Source: Promethearchaeia archaeon
Lineage (GTDB): Archaea; Asgardarchaeota; Lokiarchaeia; Sigyniarchaeales; SOKP01
Direction: 5' to 3'
NCBI GenBank assembly: GCA_046497275.1
Contig: JAWOFX010000085.1
Span: 1 to 12,304, forward strand
Length of the DNA: 12,304 bases
Shown: positions 127 through 12,304 of the stretch, piece by piece
Layout of the letters: every line of letters begins with the position of its first letter
Position numbering within the stretch: the stretch's first letter is position 1
Notes under the pieces: model-generated
Told to the model about the DNA's origin: nothing
Seen by the model: the letters and a program-made list of their open reading frames with translations, nothing else
Databases searched by the model: none
Position numbers and translations under genes: made by a program

Positions 127-1416
127 TTATTTTTCTATTTCTAATGTTTCTTTCACAATTAAAAATAGCGGTATAGATATTAGGAAAAATATTGCCCCTA
201 CTATAAAAATATAGTCTCGACCGAAGGTATCGGAGATAAGTCCACCAACAATTCCGCCTATAATTTGTGGAATAGTAAATGTGATATTGAAGATTCCGTA
301 AAACTGCCCTTTTTTTCCTTCTGGTAATGTATCTTGAGCCCATGTATTTATTATTGTGTTTAAACCAAGTAATCCAAGTAGCATAAATGGAGTTACTATT
401 ACAAATAATATCAAATTAGCAGAAGAGCTCGCGAAAGGTACGAAGAAAAATGCTAATGCGATTAAAAAGATCACTATAGGCATGAATTTTTTCCTTCCAT
501 ACTTATCAGCTAATCTTCCTAATAATATAACACACGGAAATAAAAATAAAAATCCCACTCCTATTGCAATTAATAATTCTGTCATTCCAAATGGAATATC
601 TTCAAGGAGCCATGAAAAAAGCAATGCCATCACAGATCCAATACCCGTCTGATACAGAGAAGATGCTAAAATTACTCTGAAAAAATTTTTTTGTTCTCTT
701 AAAAGAGAAATATCCAATAATTCCTTAATTTCTGTTGAAAATTTCTTTTTTGGAGGTAATTCAGATGGTGGTTTTTCTTTGATAAATACGAAACCTATAA
801 TCCCTGACACCAAGTAGACTATTCCGCCAATTATTAAAACCAATATATGCGTATTTAATGCTACAGTTTTGTCTGCTGAACCCAGATCGTCAAAGAACAT
901 TAAAAATATAACTAAACCAAATATTAAACCTAGATATGAGACCGCTTGAACGATTCCATTTGCTCTTCCACGTTTTTCTAACTCAGACACATCAGGTATA
1001 AGAGCTCTTGAGGCAACAGATACGGCGTTTGCTGTAATACCAATTAATAGTACATCAAAAATAACACATAAAACATAATTATTTGAAAAAGCATATAAGA
1101 CCATTCCGATACCTGCGAAAATAGAAAAGAGTAGAAATGGTCTTCTTCTCCCATATTTCGATCTAGTATTATCGCTGAAAATTCCCCATACAAAATTCAT
1201 TATCAGACCGACGGTTGCTGAAAGTGAGACCATAACAGCGACCCATATATCATCGTAATCTAGAACCTGGGTGATATATGTGTTGAAAATATTTTGCTCA
1301 AAAAAATAGAAAAACGTATCTGCCAGCCACAATATACCAATAATAATCACTTGGAAAAGAATAAATCGACTAAAATCTTTTAGTTCTTCCTTACCTTCTA
1401 TTAAATCTTCAGTCAT
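127..1416 (-). CDS. MFS transporter (GPH/sugar-cation symporter-like)
   Basis: 429 aa with about 12 hydrophobic helices. Loop motifs GIFSDNTRSKYGRRRPF and GRLADKYGRKK are the MFS motif A repeats. Upstream on -: AGTGA + 6 nt + ATG. Confidence 0.9.
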   Translation of the reverse strand: MTEDLIEGKEELKDFSRFILFQVIIIGILWLADTFFYFFEQNIFNTYITQVLDYDDIWVAVMVSLSATVGLIMNFVWGIFSDNTRSKYGRRRPFLLFSIFAGIGMVLYAFSNNYVLCVIFDVLLIGITANAVSVASRALIPDVSELEKRGRANGIVQAVSYLGLIFGLVIFLMFFDDLGSADKTVALNTHILVLIIGGIVYLVSGIIGFVFIKEKPPSELPPKKKFSTEIKELLDISLLREQKNFFRVILASSLYQTGIGSVMALLFSWLLEDIPFGMTELLIAIGVGFLFLFPCVILLGRLADKYGRKKFMPIVIFLIALAFFFVPFASSSANLILFVIVTPFMLLGLLGLNTIINTWAQDTLPEGKKGQFYGIFNITFTIPQIIGGIVGGLISDTFGRDYIFIVGAIFFLISIPLFLIVKETLEIEK

Positions 1417-1654
1417 TTCAAATCACTTTTTTTAAATTATTTAATTTTAATTGGACTTTATACTTTATAAGAATTCTGATTACTTCTAGCTTATATATAA
1501 ATCTAAATATATTTAAGACAAATATTGATATTTTCTAAAAACATATATAGATATTCTTGATTATAGAGGATTTGGAAAAATTAACGAATAGGAAATATTA
1601 TTATCCAATATTAATTAAATGAAGATTAAATAATTCCATATTTAACTCTTCTCA

Positions 1655-2569
1655 ATGAGGAATAAGCATATTTTAATTTCCGCTAAGTGCGATATACCGT
1701 TAATAAAGAATATAATAAAAAAATTAGAAGATATAAATGGACTTAGGTTGGATTATCATGATCCTATTAAAGATTCCATAAACTTAAAAGGCTTTTACCA
1801 AAAATTGAAAGACTATGATTTAATTATTACTAAAGTGGGAGGGGAATCCTCCATTGATTTGCTGTATATGGCGAAATTATTTAATATTCATACTATTAAT
1901 AACTTATCATCAATATTACTATGTAAGAATAAAATAGCTTTAGATAGCGCTTTAAGGAATGCATTTGAAAAGCATAAAAAAGACATAAAAGATTTTAATC
2001 TCCCAAATTCTTGGATACATCCATCTCCTCTTAAAGATTTGAAACATTTTAAGGATTGGGCAACTCCAAAATTGCCACTTGTTTTTAAAAGCCATGATCA
2101 ACATAATGAGTTCTTTAGATTTAATTTTTTAGCAAGAGACCGAAATGAAATTGACGATTTTATTTTATCTAAAAAAGATTTTCTTTATTTCGACTTATAT
2201 ATTCAAGAATTTATTGAGTGTGATGGGATAGATCGAAAAGTATATGTTATTGGAGATAAAATGTATGGGGTTCAGAGAGAAAATCCAATTTATATATACT
2301 TGAGAGAGAAGCCTGAATCTATTAATGTGGAGGAGATTGAGAGAAAATCATTCATATTAGATGATAATATAAAAAATTTAAGCAAAATCCTATCGAAAGA
2401 ATTAAATCTCAATATTTTCGGTTTTGATCTAGTCAAACCTCTCCATAAAACTGGATACTATTTACTTGATTTAAATGATTTTCCAGGATTTAGAGGGATA
2501 AAAGGCATAGATCAAGTAATCGTAGAATATATTCTAGATTATTTACAAGAACTTGAAAATAAAAAGTAG
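1655..2569 (+). CDS. ATP-grasp protein, ITPK1 (inositol 1,3,4-trisphosphate 5/6-kinase)-like; RimK-like ligase is the alternative
   Basis: 304 aa. Motifs DLIITKV, PLVFKS, IQEFIECDGIDRKVYVIGD, QRENP and NIFGFDLV...YYLLDLNDFPGF. The D-x-N-x-FPG and K-V-Y-V-I-G motifs fit ITPK1 better than RimK (E-V-N; D-I-R). No SD, so possibly leaderless. Confidence 0.7.
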   Translation: MRNKHILISAKCDIPLIKNIIKKLEDINGLRLDYHDPIKDSINLKGFYQKLKDYDLIITKVGGESSIDLLYMAKLFNIHTINNLSSILLCKNKIALDSALRNAFEKHKKDIKDFNLPNSWIHPSPLKDLKHFKDWATPKLPLVFKSHDQHNEFFRFNFLARDRNEIDDFILSKKDFLYFDLYIQEFIECDGIDRKVYVIGDKMYGVQRENPIYIYLREKPESINVEEIERKSFILDDNIKNLSKILSKELNLNIFGFDLVKPLHKTGYYLLDLNDFPGFRGIKGIDQVIVEYILDYLQELENKK

Positions 2570-2582
2570 ACCGAATCTAAAT

Positions 2583-3431
2583 CTAAAAAACTATTAAGAA
2601 AGGTAAAATGATTAAAAAGGCTATTAGGCCATATCCTATACAGAAATAACCAAAATTAATCTTTTTTGCTAGTCCTAATAGTATCTCAATTGTCAGATAT
2701 CCTACTATAAAACTAACTATTGTTGAGATTAATATTGTAAAGATATCTAAAGTTCCAAAAACGGACCCACTTCCAAAAAGAATATCTGCTCCGATTGAAC
2801 CTAGAACTGCTGGTACAGAAATAAGAAAACTTAATTTCAATGCTTCGTCTTGGTTATATTTTTGAAATAATAGTGAAGACACCGTTATTCCTGATCGAGA
2901 CACACCTGGCAATATAGATATCCCTTGTGCTAAACCTGTAATTAAACTTTCTGAATGAAAAAAATCCTCTGAGAGTTTATATAATTCTTTTTTTCCAGTT
3001 TGTTTTTTAGCAATAAGGATTATTATACCAATAACAATTAATAGCCCCGCAATAATCAACGTTAATATATCTCCTTGAGTTGAATTAAAATAATTTTCTA
3101 AAACTATTTTGAAAATGAAGTAAAGAGGGAGTGCAGTGAGTGCAGTTCCAATAGTAGCTAAAATTACCCAATTTCTTTCTATGATAGTATCAGATTCTAT
3201 TTCTCGATTTTTATGAGGGATCAACGATCTAAATATCTTATAATAGTTATTTCGATATCTAAGTATCACAGCAAACATCGTTCCTAAATGTAGCCAAATA
3301 GCTAAGCTAAATGCTTCATTAGAACTGATTCCAAATAAATTAATGGATATAATCATCACCTGACCCGAGGAAGATATGGGCAACCATTCGAACAAACCCT
3401 GTAAAATCGCAATTATAATATATTCTATCAT
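2583..3431 (-). CDS. uppP: Undecaprenyl/polyprenyl-diphosphate phosphatase (BacA family)
   Basis: 282 aa membrane protein with both BacA signatures: QGLFEWLPISSSG and AQGISILPGVSRSGIT. Confidence 0.92.
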   Translation of the reverse strand: MIEYIIIAILQGLFEWLPISSSGQVMIISINLFGISSNEAFSLAIWLHLGTMFAVILRYRNNYYKIFRSLIPHKNREIESDTIIERNWVILATIGTALTALPLYFIFKIVLENYFNSTQGDILTLIIAGLLIVIGIIILIAKKQTGKKELYKLSEDFFHSESLITGLAQGISILPGVSRSGITVSSLLFQKYNQDEALKLSFLISVPAVLGSIGADILFGSGSVFGTLDIFTILISTIVSFIVGYLTIEILLGLAKKINFGYFCIGYGLIAFLIILPFLIVF

Positions 3432-3469: not shown

Positions 3470-3967
3470 TCATAAATCATCTGGAAACCATTTTCTCAAT
3501 CCTTTTAAAAGACAATCCTTTATCTCATCCCTTGCTTTTCTAAATCCTTCTATTCCTTTCATTGAGGGATCTTCGATATCTCCATATTCTCCCGCAAATT
3601 CTTTTAAAGTAAAAATATCTCCATCGTATTTATCTAACAATCCATTAAGATCATATAGTTCTTTCTTATGATTTTGAGTAAGTGTCAAAATTAAATCTGT
3701 ATTTTCTACTATTTTTGGATGTTTCTTTAAATCAATTGATTTAGAGTCTTCGGGTAAATGTATGCCCTCCTCTTTCATAACTAACTTCGCATCAAGAGAA
3801 ATTAACATTCCATCCCGGGCATTAGATGAAATACCGCACGAATTAACCTTAATATCTAAGGAAAGTAGGGTAGAAAAATGTGATAGATATCCTTTTGCGA
3901 TTGGACTTCGTGCCGTGTTTACACTACACACAACTAAGATTGATTTATAAGGGAAATTTCCTACCAT
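3470..3967 (-). CDS. Low-molecular-weight protein phosphatase (LMW-PTP / YwlE-like)
   Basis: 165 aa. P-loop VCSVNTARSP (C-x5-R-S), DLILTLTQNHK segment, and the general-acid DIEDP motif. Confidence 0.85.
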   Translation of the reverse strand: MVGNFPYKSILVVCSVNTARSPIAKGYLSHFSTLLSLDIKVNSCGISSNARDGMLISLDAKLVMKEEGIHLPEDSKSIDLKKHPKIVENTDLILTLTQNHKKELYDLNGLLDKYDGDIFTLKEFAGEYGDIEDPSMKGIEGFRKARDEIKDCLLKGLRKWFPDDL

Positions 3968-4121: not shown

Positions 4122-4805
4122 TTATTTAAAAAAACTTGTTGTATTAAGAAATTTGACGCCTATATTATCCATATCTTCTAATGCGTTTGAAACACTTCCT
4201 TTTGGGTCATCTATTCCTTTTGTTAAATCTAATATCAAAAAGACCTCAAACCCAAATTCTATTGCATCGATTGCAGAATAATAGCAGCAATAATCCAACG
4301 CTAACCCCGAGATAAATACTCTTTTTATCCCCAGATCTTTTAATAATCCTTTTAAGCCCGTTTCTTTCTTCTTAAGCTGGTCTCTAAATGCAGAATAAGA
4401 ATCTACTTCAGGATCCATGCCTTTTCGTATTATCGCTCTAGCTAACTTTATATCTAAATCCTTATGAAATTCTGCTCCTTTTGTTCCTTGAACACAATGA
4501 TCAGGCCAAAGAACTGGACCAATTCCCTCTCCATGAAATTCATCTCCAGGCTGTTTTCCCGGGTGATTACTTGCAAATGATTTATCATTTGAAGGATGCC
4601 AATCTTGAGTTTGAATTATAGATGCTCCCTTTTTATCGAAAAGATTACCTATTTCATTTATCCCACTAATAATCTCGTCTCCGCCTTCCACAGCCAATGC
4701 ACCTCCAGGGAGGAAATCATACTGCATATCAACTATAATAAGAACATCATCTTTTGTAATTTTAATGTTTTTTTTAATTTCTACATCATTAATATCCAAT
4801 TTCAA
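4122..4805 (-). CDS. pncA: Nicotinamidase/pyrazinamidase (isochorismatase family)
   Basis: 227 aa. Motifs IVDMQYDFLPGGALAV, QDWHP, LWPDHCVQGT, IRKG...DSYSAF and GLALDYC (catalytic Asp/Lys/Cys). The start is TTG at 4805, or the second TTG at 4799, which is better spaced from GAGGT. Confidence 0.92.
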   Translation of the reverse strand: MKLDINDVEIKKNIKITKDDVLIIVDMQYDFLPGGALAVEGGDEIISGINEIGNLFDKKGASIIQTQDWHPSNDKSFASNHPGKQPGDEFHGEGIGPVLWPDHCVQGTKGAEFHKDLDIKLARAIIRKGMDPEVDSYSAFRDQLKKKETGLKGLLKDLGIKRVFISGLALDYCCYYSAIDAIEFGFEVFLILDLTKGIDDPKGSVSNALEDMDNIGVKFLNTTSFFK

Positions 4806-7217: not shown

Positions 7218-7955
7218 TTGGTGATTAAAATTTCGGATAAAAAAATAAATCTAAAATCTCAGTTTGGGAAGTTAGGAATGCATTTAATTGACCAAGCAAA
7301 AGATAAAATAAAAGATCTAAATCAAGAAATGTTATTCCGTAAGGCAGAAATAAAGAAAAGGTATAGAAATCGATTAGATTTAAAATCCGATCAAATTAGA
7401 AAGGGATTTATTGAGGATTACAATAATAGTTTAAATAAAAATTTATCTTCAACTCTTTTAGAATCAAAAGAAAGGATATTAGAATTAAAAAACAATTTAA
7501 TTAAATTATTTATTAAAGATTTAAGAGAAGAAATTAAGAAAAGGATAAATAGTAATTACAAAGGTTATGTTCAATATCTCTTAGATATAATTGATAATAT
7601 TAAAAATAAGGATAATTTACCAAAAAATTCAATTCTTTATTTTAATGAAAGAGATATGGATTACTTTCGAAAAAATATAGAGAAAATAAAAAATATTGTG
7701 AATAATGAATTTCAAATTAAAAAAGAACTAAAAATTGAGATTGGTGGATTTATTTTAGAACAAGATGATGGAGAAATTTCATTTGATTACACTATTGATA
7801 ATACTATAGAAGAAAACTATTCTAAAATTGAGATGAACTTTTCAAATATAATAAAAGATACAGAAATAAAAAAGCTCCAAAAAGAATTCGAAGAATTTGT
7901 TAATCAGAAAAAAAAAAATATAGGAGATTATTTGATTGACTATGACAGAATCTGA
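7218..7955 (+). CDS. atpE: A/V-type ATP synthase subunit E
   Basis: Helical N-terminal half, then a globular domain with IGGFILEQDDGEISFDYTID (typical GG.I......I..D.T motif). The start is TTG 7218 or possibly ATT 7230. Confidence 0.85.
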   Translation: MVIKISDKKINLKSQFGKLGMHLIDQAKDKIKDLNQEMLFRKAEIKKRYRNRLDLKSDQIRKGFIEDYNNSLNKNLSSTLLESKERILELKNNLIKLFIKDLREEIKKRINSNYKGYVQYLLDIIDNIKNKDNLPKNSILYFNERDMDYFRKNIEKIKNIVNNEFQIKKELKIEIGGFILEQDDGEISFDYTIDNTIEENYSKIEMNFSNIIKDTEIKKLQKEFEEFVNQKKKNIGDYLIDYDRI

Positions 7956-9780
7956 AAAAAATAATAAAGGATATATCTCTGAAATTAATGGATCATTAAT
8001 CACAGTTAAAGGTTTAGAAGATCAAGTTAGACTTCATGATTTAATTAAAGTAAATAAACAAAATCTAATAGGAGAAATAATACAGATCTATAGTGATAGG
8101 ATAAGTGTTCAATGTTTTGAAGCTACAGATAATTTAAAATTAAAGGAGGAAGTTACCTATTTAAAGGAACCCTTATCAATGGAATTAGGTCCTGGGTTAC
8201 TTTCAAATATTTTTGATGGAATCCAAAGACCTTTAGATAAAATTTTCGAGCTCGAAAAATCAGGTTTTATTCCCAGAGGGATTGATATTTCCGCATTAGA
8301 TAGAGAAAAGAAATGGCATTTTACTCCTACTAAAAAAGTTGATCAAGAAGTAAATGCTGGAGATGTGATCGGAGTGGTACAAGAAACTCCAGCAATCTCC
8401 CATTTTATAATGGTGCATCCTTCTATTAATGGGACTCTTTCTTTTATCAAAAAAGAAGGAGAATATACTGTAGATGAAGATCTTTATAAAATAGACGTAA
8501 ATGGTAATGAAAAAACATTTAACATGATACAAAAATGGTCTGTAACGAAAAGCCGACCTTTTTTCAAGAGATTAACTCCCAATGAACCTTTAATTACAGG
8601 ACAACGAGTGATAGATTTATTATTTCCAGTCGCCAAGGGAGGAACAGTTGCGGTTCCAGGAGGTTTCGGAACAGGGAAAACTGTGCTTCAGCAGTCTATA
8701 GCTAAATGGTCTGATGCAGATATAATAGTTTTTGTTCATTGTGGAGAAAGGGGAAATGAAGTTGCTGATTTATTAAGACAATTTCCTGAACTCGAGGATC
8801 CACGAACAGGAAGACCTTTATTAGAAAGAACGATCCTAATTACGAATACATCTAATATGCCCGTTTCTGCTCGTGAAGCAAGTATCTTTTCTGGTATAAC
8901 AATAGCAGAATATTATAGAGATATGGGATATAATGTTGCTTTACAAGCAGACAGTACTTCTCGATGGGCAGAAGCTCTCAGAGAAATATCTGGCCTATTA
9001 GAAGAGATGCCCGCCGAGGGTGGTTATCCTGCCTATTTAGCTTCTCGCCTCTCGAGCTTTTTTGAAAGAGCTGGAGTAATTGAGGTTATAGGAGAACAAG
9101 AAAATAAAAAGAGTAAATATGGTTCTTTAACAGTTATTGGTTCAGTTTCTCCTCCAGCAGGAGATTTTAGTGAACCCGTTACTTCAAATACTAAAAGATT
9201 TGTTCAAACTTTTTGGGCACTTGATGCTGAATTAGCATATGAGAAACATTACCCAGCAATTAACTGGCTTGAGTCATATTCAAACTATCCAAGTTATATT
9301 AGAAAATGGTGGAATCAAAACGTTAAAATCGATTGGTCCGAAATAGATATCGATTGGTTTAAATGTAGGAATAGAGTAAATCAAATATTATCACGAGAAA
9401 ATGAACTAAAAAATATGACTCAATTAGTGGGTGAGGAAAATCTCCCCGAATTACAACAACTTGATCTCTTTATTGCTAATTTGATTAAAGAAGCTTTCCT
9501 TATTCAGAATGCTTTTGATGATATCGATAATTTTACTTCTACAGAAAAAAATATTGCCCTTATTAAACTCATTCTTCTTCTCCATCAAGAGGCGGAGGAA
9601 TTGATAACACAAGGTTATATTATCAAAGATATTAAGGATTTAGAAGTTATCGATAAAATAAAAAGAGTAAAGAATACCATATCTAATGAAGATATAAATG
9701 AAATCGAAGATATCAAAGATAAGTTATTAAATCAAATAGATTCCTTAAAAAAATCTTATGGAGTCGTGAAAAGTTATTGA
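7942..9780 (+). CDS. atpA: A/V-type ATP synthase catalytic subunit A
   Basis: Walker A GGFGTGKT, CGERGNE, NTSNMPVSAREASI, DSTSRWAEALREISG, EEMPAEGGYPAYL and SPPAGDFSEPVT. No intein. ATG 7942 is preferred; TTG 7936 is possible. Confidence 0.97.
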   Translation: MTESEKNNKGYISEINGSLITVKGLEDQVRLHDLIKVNKQNLIGEIIQIYSDRISVQCFEATDNLKLKEEVTYLKEPLSMELGPGLLSNIFDGIQRPLDKIFELEKSGFIPRGIDISALDREKKWHFTPTKKVDQEVNAGDVIGVVQETPAISHFIMVHPSINGTLSFIKKEGEYTVDEDLYKIDVNGNEKTFNMIQKWSVTKSRPFFKRLTPNEPLITGQRVIDLLFPVAKGGTVAVPGGFGTGKTVLQQSIAKWSDADIIVFVHCGERGNEVADLLRQFPELEDPRTGRPLLERTILITNTSNMPVSAREASIFSGITIAEYYRDMGYNVALQADSTSRWAEALREISGLLEEMPAEGGYPAYLASRLSSFFERAGVIEVIGEQENKKSKYGSLTVIGSVSPPAGDFSEPVTSNTKRFVQTFWALDAELAYEKHYPAINWLESYSNYPSYIRKWWNQNVKIDWSEIDIDWFKCRNRVNQILSRENELKNMTQLVGEENLPELQQLDLFIANLIKEAFLIQNAFDDIDNFTSTEKNIALIKLILLLHQEAEELITQGYIIKDIKDLEVIDKIKRVKNTISNEDINEIEDIKDKLLNQIDSLKKSYGVVKSY

Positions 9781-11831: not shown

Positions 11832-12304
11832 ATGGCTAAAATGACTTTGTTTAATATAATCATACAAAAAATTCTCAAAGATAGCATTTTAATGAATTTA
11901 GCAAATCAAAAAATAGTTCATATAAAGGAAAAAGAGAAAGAAAAAATAAAAGAAGAAAAAGAGGAATATAAAGAGAATATTAAAGATTTACGCCAAAATT
12001 TAGAAGATCTCTTTAAAAAATTAAATATAGCAAAATCCGAATTCCAAGCTTTACATTTAGAAAAGGATGAGAAAAAGGAATTCAGGGTGAAAGATTTATA
12101 TGAATTAATTCACCAAGTTACAGATGAAATTAATTTCTATATGAATCGGATTAATGAATTAGAGCGATATATTAATAAAGCAACTCTAGAATTAGAAAAT
12201 ATTAATGAAATCAATTCAGCTTATACATTCTTAAATAAATATGAATTTAATCGAAAACATTTACGTTATTTTGATGAGTTAGATATAAAAACTTATATCA
12301 CTTA
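11832..12304 (+). CDS. atpI: A/V-type ATP synthase subunit I (a), N-terminal part; runs off the window
   Basis: Not in the ORF track. My translation: MAKMTLFNIIIQKILKDSILMNLANQKIVHIKEKEKEKIKEEK... with no stop to the window end. It matches the subunit I start pattern (M.KM...I.....D..L..L.....VHI) followed by coiled coil. GGTGA at 11818-11822. Confidence 0.85.
   Translation, partial: MAKMTLFNIIIQKILKDSILMNLANQKIVHIKEKEKEKIKEEKEEYKENIKDLRQNLEDLFKKLNIAKSEFQALHLEKDEKKEFRVKDLYELIHQVTDEINFYMNRINELERYINKATLELENINEINSAYTFLNKYEFNRKHLRYFDELDIKTYIT

Follow-up and report, generated by a model that had tools for sequence, protein, structure and literature searches.

A deep-branching ITPK-like kinase gene under purifying selection in an Asgard archaeal genome without detectable inositol-3-phosphate synthase

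The open reading frame (ORF) at 1655..2569 on the forward strand of the 12,304-nucleotide stretch of Asgard archaeal DNA analyzed here (hereafter, the window) probably encodes an ATP-grasp kinase for inositol phosphates, of the Asgard LcIK type, that has lost its genomic partners. The protein is a member of the ITPK (PF05770) ATP-grasp superfamily and not a RimK/LysX ligase. Its gene is under purifying selection (dN/dS about 0.14), and profile and tblastn searches of the genome that carries it found no inositol-3-phosphate synthase (MIPS). An earlier sequence-only reading of this DNA had proposed an ITPK1-like kinase and noted that ITPK1 homologues were known from Asgard archaea; they are (PMC6900528), and the family, its Asgard presence, and its linkage to MIPS have all been published (PMC6900528; see also PMC8024741 and the 2026 preprint 10.64898/2026.05.08.723234). 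What we add is modest: the kinase is an orphan in a genome without MIPS, its clade branches deeply, and a nucleotide-contacting His is replaced by Cys family-wide.

The case for soluble inositol-polyphosphate synthesis predating eukaryotes rests mainly on the ITPK homologues of Asgard archaea. The copy described here adds no new family to that case. It does provide a natural experiment, in which a kinase without its synthase and its paralogous partners is still under selection, and the apparent place of its clade between RimK/LysX and the eukaryote-type ITPKs is useful for reconstructing the origin of the kinase.

The gene, which belongs to a clade that we label ‘ITPKo’ (hereafter, the own clade), is an open frame of 304 aa plus a stop codon. 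All the motifs quoted in the sequence-only reading are found in its translation: LIITK (residues 56-60), CKNK (90-93), PLVFK (141-145), QEFI (184-187), KVYVIGD (195-201), QR (207-208), FGFD (255-258), and DLNDFPGF (272-279). The closest relatives in databases are about 400 proteins, and those with an organism name come from Asgard archaea, namely Promethearchaeota/Lokiarchaeota together with some Hermod- and Odinarchaeota. Their annotation is mixed (‘inositol 1,3,4-trisphosphate 5/6-kinase’, ‘RimK family ligase’, or hypothetical), and the NCBI name ITPK is already attached to the orthologue of a congeneric genome (79% identity).

The sole Pfam match of the protein is PF05770 (Ins134_P3_kin), which scores 48.6 bits (gathering score 23; E 9.6e-13), with the best stretch limited to residues 237-295. 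Pfam gave no match at E <= 1 to PF17927, the N-terminal pre-ATP-grasp profile, but hhalign does align the N-terminal domain, including Lys60 with Lys59 of human ITPK1, and the model of the kinase superposes on residues 4-327 of 2QB5. The best NCBIfam match, on the other hand, is rimK_fam (TIGR00768), which would point to an ATP-grasp ligase of the RimK/LysX type, attaching glutamate or a different amino acid to proteins, peptides, or cofactors, as would the RimK family ligase annotation carried by many orthologues. The score of that match (51.2 bits) is far below the cut-off of 143.4, whereas the two true RimK/LysX genes of the same genome reach 248.9 and 226 bits, and PF08443 (RimK/LysX) was not reported for the kinase protein in the Pfam search.

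Profile comparisons speak to the same choice. A search of all PDB sequences with a profile built from 39 family members returned ITPK1, ITPK4, and PPIP5K chains only. With hhalign, the family aligned at full length (287 columns; probability 99.8%, E 2.4e-28) to 18 canonical ITPKs, among them Quercus ITPK1 and a metazoan-type ITPK1, versus 268 columns (99.1%, E 9.9e-19, still significant) for 19 Asgard RimK/LysX proteins. These E-values place the kinase family clearly closer to ITPK than to RimK/LysX, which agrees with the sequence-only reading. Canonical ITPKs and RimK/LysX aligned to each other over 247 columns (98.3%, E 1.8e-14); the RimK/LysX profile is thus nearer to the kinase family than to the canonical ITPKs.

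The phylogeny that had been suggested as a check was computed by maximum likelihood. Its 58 proteins represented the own clade (8 sequences), canonical ITPKs (15), a second Asgard clade (8), a clade of MIPS-linked paralogues (4), other short ATP-grasp proteins (11), and RimK/LysX (12). The branch parting the four ITPK-type clades from RimK/LysX and the others has a UFBoot of 98 and an SH-aLRT of 97, and the protein lies inside the ITPK superclade. Its own clade is supported at 100/100 and is the first branch within that superclade (88/86). Weaker support (83/60) joins the canonical ITPKs and the second Asgard clade as sister groups, and the own clade is not sister to the eukaryotic ITPKs in this tree. 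Because it branches first and its profile is the nearer one to RimK/LysX, the own clade appears to be an intermediate between RimK/LysX ligases and eukaryote-type ITPKs.

We also considered the fold as a means of telling an ITPK from a ligase and set it aside. The AF2 model has high confidence (pLDDT 93.3), but comparison of folds does not separate the two families. The top Foldseek match is ArgX, and VIA-align gives Z scores of 23.9 for human ITPK1 (rmsd 3.3 Å over 272 residues), 23.7 for ArgX, 23.6 for LysX, 23.2 for RimK, 23.0 for synapsin, and 22.9 for PPIP5K2. Taken alone, the first place of ArgX in Foldseek and the tie of ArgX and LysX with ITPK1 in VIA-align would favor a ligase; since the top matches all fall within one Z unit, the structure says ‘ATP-grasp’ and no more.

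To compare individual residues with human ITPK1 (Hs), we mapped them through the hhalign alignment and an alignment of a metazoan-type ITPK1 (P0177) to the human chain 2ODT, with conservation counted over 120 family members and residue roles in ITPK1 taken from PMC6900528 and PMC7614388. The ATP and Mg2+ ligands are all present, each in 120/120 members: Lys145 (Hs Lys157, ATP), Gln184 (Hs Gln188, hinge), and the Mg2+ ligands from Asp258 to Asp272-Leu-Asn274 (Hs Asp281, Asp295, and Asn297), encoded at 2426..2476 (+). Gln184 lies in the segment QEFIECDGIDRK (2204..2239, +), together with Cys189 and Lys195. Human ITPK1 makes its proximal contacts with inositol phosphate through His167, Lys199, and Arg212 (PMC6900528). 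By alignment, these contacts are matched by Lys195 (Hs Lys199, 120/120) and by Arg208 (Hs Arg212, 120/120), the latter in Arg208-Glu209-Asn210 at 2276..2284 (+), with Arg155 (119/120) one alignment column from His167, which has no exact equivalent. The distal contact Hs Lys59 corresponds to Lys60 (codon 1832..1834, +; 120/120), His150 to Hs His162 (118/120), and position 11, beside the equivalent of Lys18, is Arg or Lys in 106/120 members. The basic residues by which human ITPK1 contacts inositol phosphates are kept as far as sequence conservation goes; the sequence-only reading had counted the lack of a basic pocket as an argument against its proposal. His147 is also kept in 120/120 members, and Gly278 (Hs Gly301) is Gly in 83 and Ser in 37.

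Aligned in this way, the family as a whole departs from canonical ITPKs at three positions. Cys189 (Cys in 115 members, Ser in 5) occupies the position of Hs His193, which is invariant among the 18 canonical ITPKs and contacts the nucleotide (it is equivalent to ZmITPK1 His192; PMC7614388). The second departure is Arg155 near His167, and the third is Asn210, which replaces the invariant ITPK Ser214 in 120/120 members. The differences on which the sequence-only reading had based a suspicion of altered specificity (Thr for His in the IITK motif, and CKNK) are indeed there, but they deserve little weight: the Thr59 position is variable (Val in 89/120 members), and Lys93 (Lys in 113, Arg in 7) is a conservative replacement of Hs Arg106.

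Positions that are invariant in RimK/LysX are, in the same alignments, either absent from the kinase or in the ITPK state. Opposite the GSxGxG loop, D-I-R, R...N...G, and E-V-N of the ligases, the kinase reads SHDQHNE, D-R-K, no N...G after the conserved Arg, and D-L-N; the Gly-rich loop is replaced by the segment KSHDQHNEFFR from Lys145 to Arg155 (2087..2119, +). D-I-R and E-V-N had been named by the sequence-only reading as usual in RimK ligases, and in the 19 Asgard RimK/LysX proteins Asp184/Arg186 and Glu257/Asn259 are in fact invariant, aligned with Asp193/Lys195 and Asp272/Asn274 of the kinase. With these residues, the low rimK_fam score, and the 98/97 split of the tree all standing against it, a glutamate- or other amino-acid-adding ligase is a reading to which we give hardly any credence.

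The inositol-phosphate kinase that we favor would be a soluble ATP-grasp phosphotransferase of a deep-branching clade of the ITPK superfamily. ATP would bind between the central and C-terminal subdomains, held by Lys145 and the Gln184-Glu-Phe-Ile hinge, with Cys189 at the place of the nucleotide-contacting His of eukaryotic ITPKs, and Asp258, Asp272, and Asn274 would hold two Mg2+ ions. The gamma-phosphate would then pass to a hydroxyl of a phosphorylated inositol, with Lys195, Arg208, Arg155/His150, Lys60, and the basic side chain of position 11 holding this substrate. As for substrate and regiochemistry, which we infer, the native substrate is likely Ins(3)P or a low inositol phosphate, because in most relatives the gene lies beside MIPS and a second ITPK-like paralogue; the enzyme may serve a lipid-independent route to higher inositol phosphates.

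Genome counts were taken over 121 genomes of the class, each at least 85% complete. One Asgard family contributes 106 of them, and 90 of these have a single copy of the own-clade gene; searches of the other 15, from other families of the class, gave no copy. Within this sample, the own clade is confined to a single family of Loki-type Asgard archaea. Of the 90 carriers, 87 have MIPS, versus 10 of the 16 non-carriers, a comparison that is descriptive only, as related genomes are not independent. One type of MIPS lies on the same contig as the own-clade gene, at most 11 kb away, in at least 24 genomes. MIPS directly adjoins the orthologue in two of the loci that we compared in detail (L011 and L023) and is 5.5 kb away in a third (L022). 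On the 2.27-Mb Promethearchaeota contig of L011, the order is HAD hydrolase, ATP-grasp protein, 271-aa protein, ITPK-like paralogue, MIPS, orthologue, BacA, low-molecular-weight (LMW) phosphatase, and an isochorismatase-family protein, the last being the counterpart of the nicotinamidase in the window. L022 and L023, genomes of the same taxonomic family, share this core; an insertion in L022 places a 936-aa protein, an alcohol dehydrogenase, and an MFS transporter between MIPS and the orthologue. The HAD hydrolase, the ATP-grasp_3-like protein, and the 271-aa protein are encoded at L011:899-3490 (-), and none has an orthologue in the window's genome. The 271-aa protein weakly matches RimK and the kinase ORF, which makes it a fourth ATP-grasp gene of the cluster.

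The window itself is A+T-rich (22-35% G+C). Upstream of the kinase gene, an A+T-rich divergent intergenic region (1417..1654), which from its sequence we presume to hold the promoter, leads to an MFS transporter gene in the opposite orientation (127..1416, -; 429 aa; PF07690, 161.7 bits). This divergent neighbor sits on the side where relatives have MIPS and the paralogous kinase, and an MFS gene likewise adjoins the orthologue in L010 and L022. We rejected the assignment of this gene as an inositol importer: the protein matches no specific NCBIfam transporter family, and its gene is truncated in the closest relative, L028, so we treat it as a variable passenger. In L028 (9205-9819), the MFS protein is cut to residues 185-405 at 95% identity, compared with full length in the window, and the gene there is probably a decaying passenger.

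On the other side, the kinase gene faces a convergent block of UppP/BacA (2583-3431, -), an LMW phosphatase/ArsC-like protein (3470-3967, -), and the nicotinamidase PncA (4122-4805, -). This block is convergent to the kinase in each relative examined (L010, L011, L022, and L028), down to 48% identity. Beyond it, an A/V-type ATP synthase operon runs from 5099 to the end of the window (+). Its A-type subunit A (7936-9780) has 614 aa and no intein, whereas the subunit A of L028 (16289-19750) has 1153 aa and includes intein-splicing and LAGLIDADG domains. An open-ended ORF after atpD (11832-12302, +) has weak coiled-coil matches and no other family match.

The window's genome comprises 3.85 Mb in 188 contigs and is 98.9% complete, with a single PF05770 gene. 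The search for inositol-3-phosphate synthase that the sequence-only reading had called for came back empty in this genome, both with the Pfam profiles PF01658 and PF07994 and with tblastn using both MIPS types. Genome-wide searches likewise found neither the paralogous kinase nor the other ATP-grasp genes of the cluster, and IPK-family kinases (PF03770) were also absent from the genome. Two IMPase-family proteins remain, as do two archaetidylinositol-phosphate-synthase-like candidates, whose scores of 162 and 133 bits are below the equivalog cut-off of 180. With no MIPS in the genome, the presumed substrate of the kinase has no endogenous source; given the loss of the synthase and the cluster partners, inositol phosphates, if they are still the substrate, must come from uptake or salvage.

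We considered whether a gap in the assembly could account for the missing synthase. MIPS is present in 5 of 6 congeners, and in two of them (L020:6977-8122 and L021:7076-8257) it lies between a gene of about 125 aa and one of about 790 aa. The orthologues of these two flanking genes are adjacent in the window's genome, at 106461-106808 and 106940-109339 of contig C118, 131 bp apart. As this contig is unbroken, an assembly gap is rejected as the cause for the unlinked MIPS, and the absence is a clean one. Upstream of the window, a gap could still hide a synthase, since base 1 of the window is the start of its contig, C139, only 126 bases from the MFS gene. Against such a hidden synthase, tblastn finds none genome-wide, and the closest relative, L028 (89% identity), has an FKBP-type gene, a small ORF, and the truncated MFS gene on its upstream side, with no MIPS among them.

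Loss of the inositol pathway seems to be under way within the genus, and the kinase gene could then be a functionless relic of the cluster on its way to loss. The genus lacks the cluster partners (the linked MIPS, the kinase paralogue, and two further ATP-grasp genes), the unlinked MIPS is missing from the window's genome as well, and the kinase gene is wholly absent from two congeners (G001 and G006), one of which also lacks MIPS. The state of the gene itself argues otherwise. Its reading frame is intact, and it keeps 41/41 invariant positions of a 39-sequence family alignment. Against the 89%-identical orthologue of L028, its dN/dS is 0.135-0.19, the same as for neighboring housekeeping genes (BacA 0.10, LMW phosphatase 0.20); values against more distant orthologues were set aside, with synonymous sites saturated. 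A relic on its way out is therefore very unlikely.

The main rival to an inositol-phosphate kinase with lost partners is an ITPK-fold kinase whose substrate does not come from the cell's own inositol synthesis, such as a different polyol, sugar, or head-group in phosphorylated form, or scavenged inositol phosphates. That the gene persists intact and under purifying selection although its genome, 98.9% complete, has no MIPS is what this reading would lead one to expect, and two further carriers, the only others without detectable MIPS, fit it as well: G013 (100% complete) and G052 (89% complete, 720 contigs). The deepest branch of the superclade, the changes at three canonical invariants (H193C, S214N, and Arg155 beside His167), and a profile that lies nearer to RimK/LysX than that of the canonical ITPKs also count in its favor. 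Yet MIPS accompanies the gene in nearly all carriers and often adjoins it, the proximal phosphate-binding residues are as in ITPK1, and the loss of MIPS in the window's genome may be too recent for dN/dS to register. On balance, we think a substrate from outside the cell's own inositol synthesis unlikely. A broader version, to which we would likewise assign a small chance, is that this deepest-branching ITPK clade is independent of the cell's own inositol synthesis, acting on scavenged inositol phosphates or on another phosphorylated polyol, and may preserve the activity through which the kinases of eukaryotic inositol-polyphosphate signalling emerged from RimK/LysX-like ancestors.

Three known groups of proteins bear comparison with the kinase. 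The RimK/LysX/ArgX alpha-L-glutamate ligases (TIGR00768; 3VPB, 3VPD, 7QYS) resemble it in their ATP-grasp fold (Z 23.2-23.7), their size, and the ATP lysine, Gln hinge, and Mg ligands common to both, but the kinase has none of their Gly-rich loop, D-I-R, E-V-N, and N...G, and it falls in a separate clade. The eukaryotic ITPK1 enzymes (human 2QB5/2Q7D/2ODT; maize 7TN5; potato 8OXE) have the same three-subdomain ATP-grasp fold and a full-length profile match, and the kinase has equivalents of their K59, K157, H162, Q188, K199, R212, D281, D295, N297, and G301. It differs from them in its low identity (about 16-20%), its shorter length (304 aa) with the variable insert after R212 nearly absent, its Cys for His193, Arg155 near His167, Asn for Ser214, and Lys for Arg106, and the lack of conservation of K18 in the archaeal family.

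Closest to the kinase in setting are the four Lokiarchaeum ITPK1 homologues LcIKA-LcIKD, which flank IPS genes (Desfougères et al. 2019, PNAS, PMC6900528). LcIKC, the only LcIK tested, partially restored InsP6 in plc1-delta yeast (PMC6900528); this result may not carry over to the own clade. The kinase described here differs from the LcIK proteins in being detached from its cluster, in a genome without MIPS and the paralogue. In common with them, it is an Asgard ATP-grasp protein of PF05770 that keeps the ATP-proximal contacts K199 and R212, and in relatives of the window's genome the orthologue and the paralogue flank MIPS exactly as described for Lokiarchaeum.
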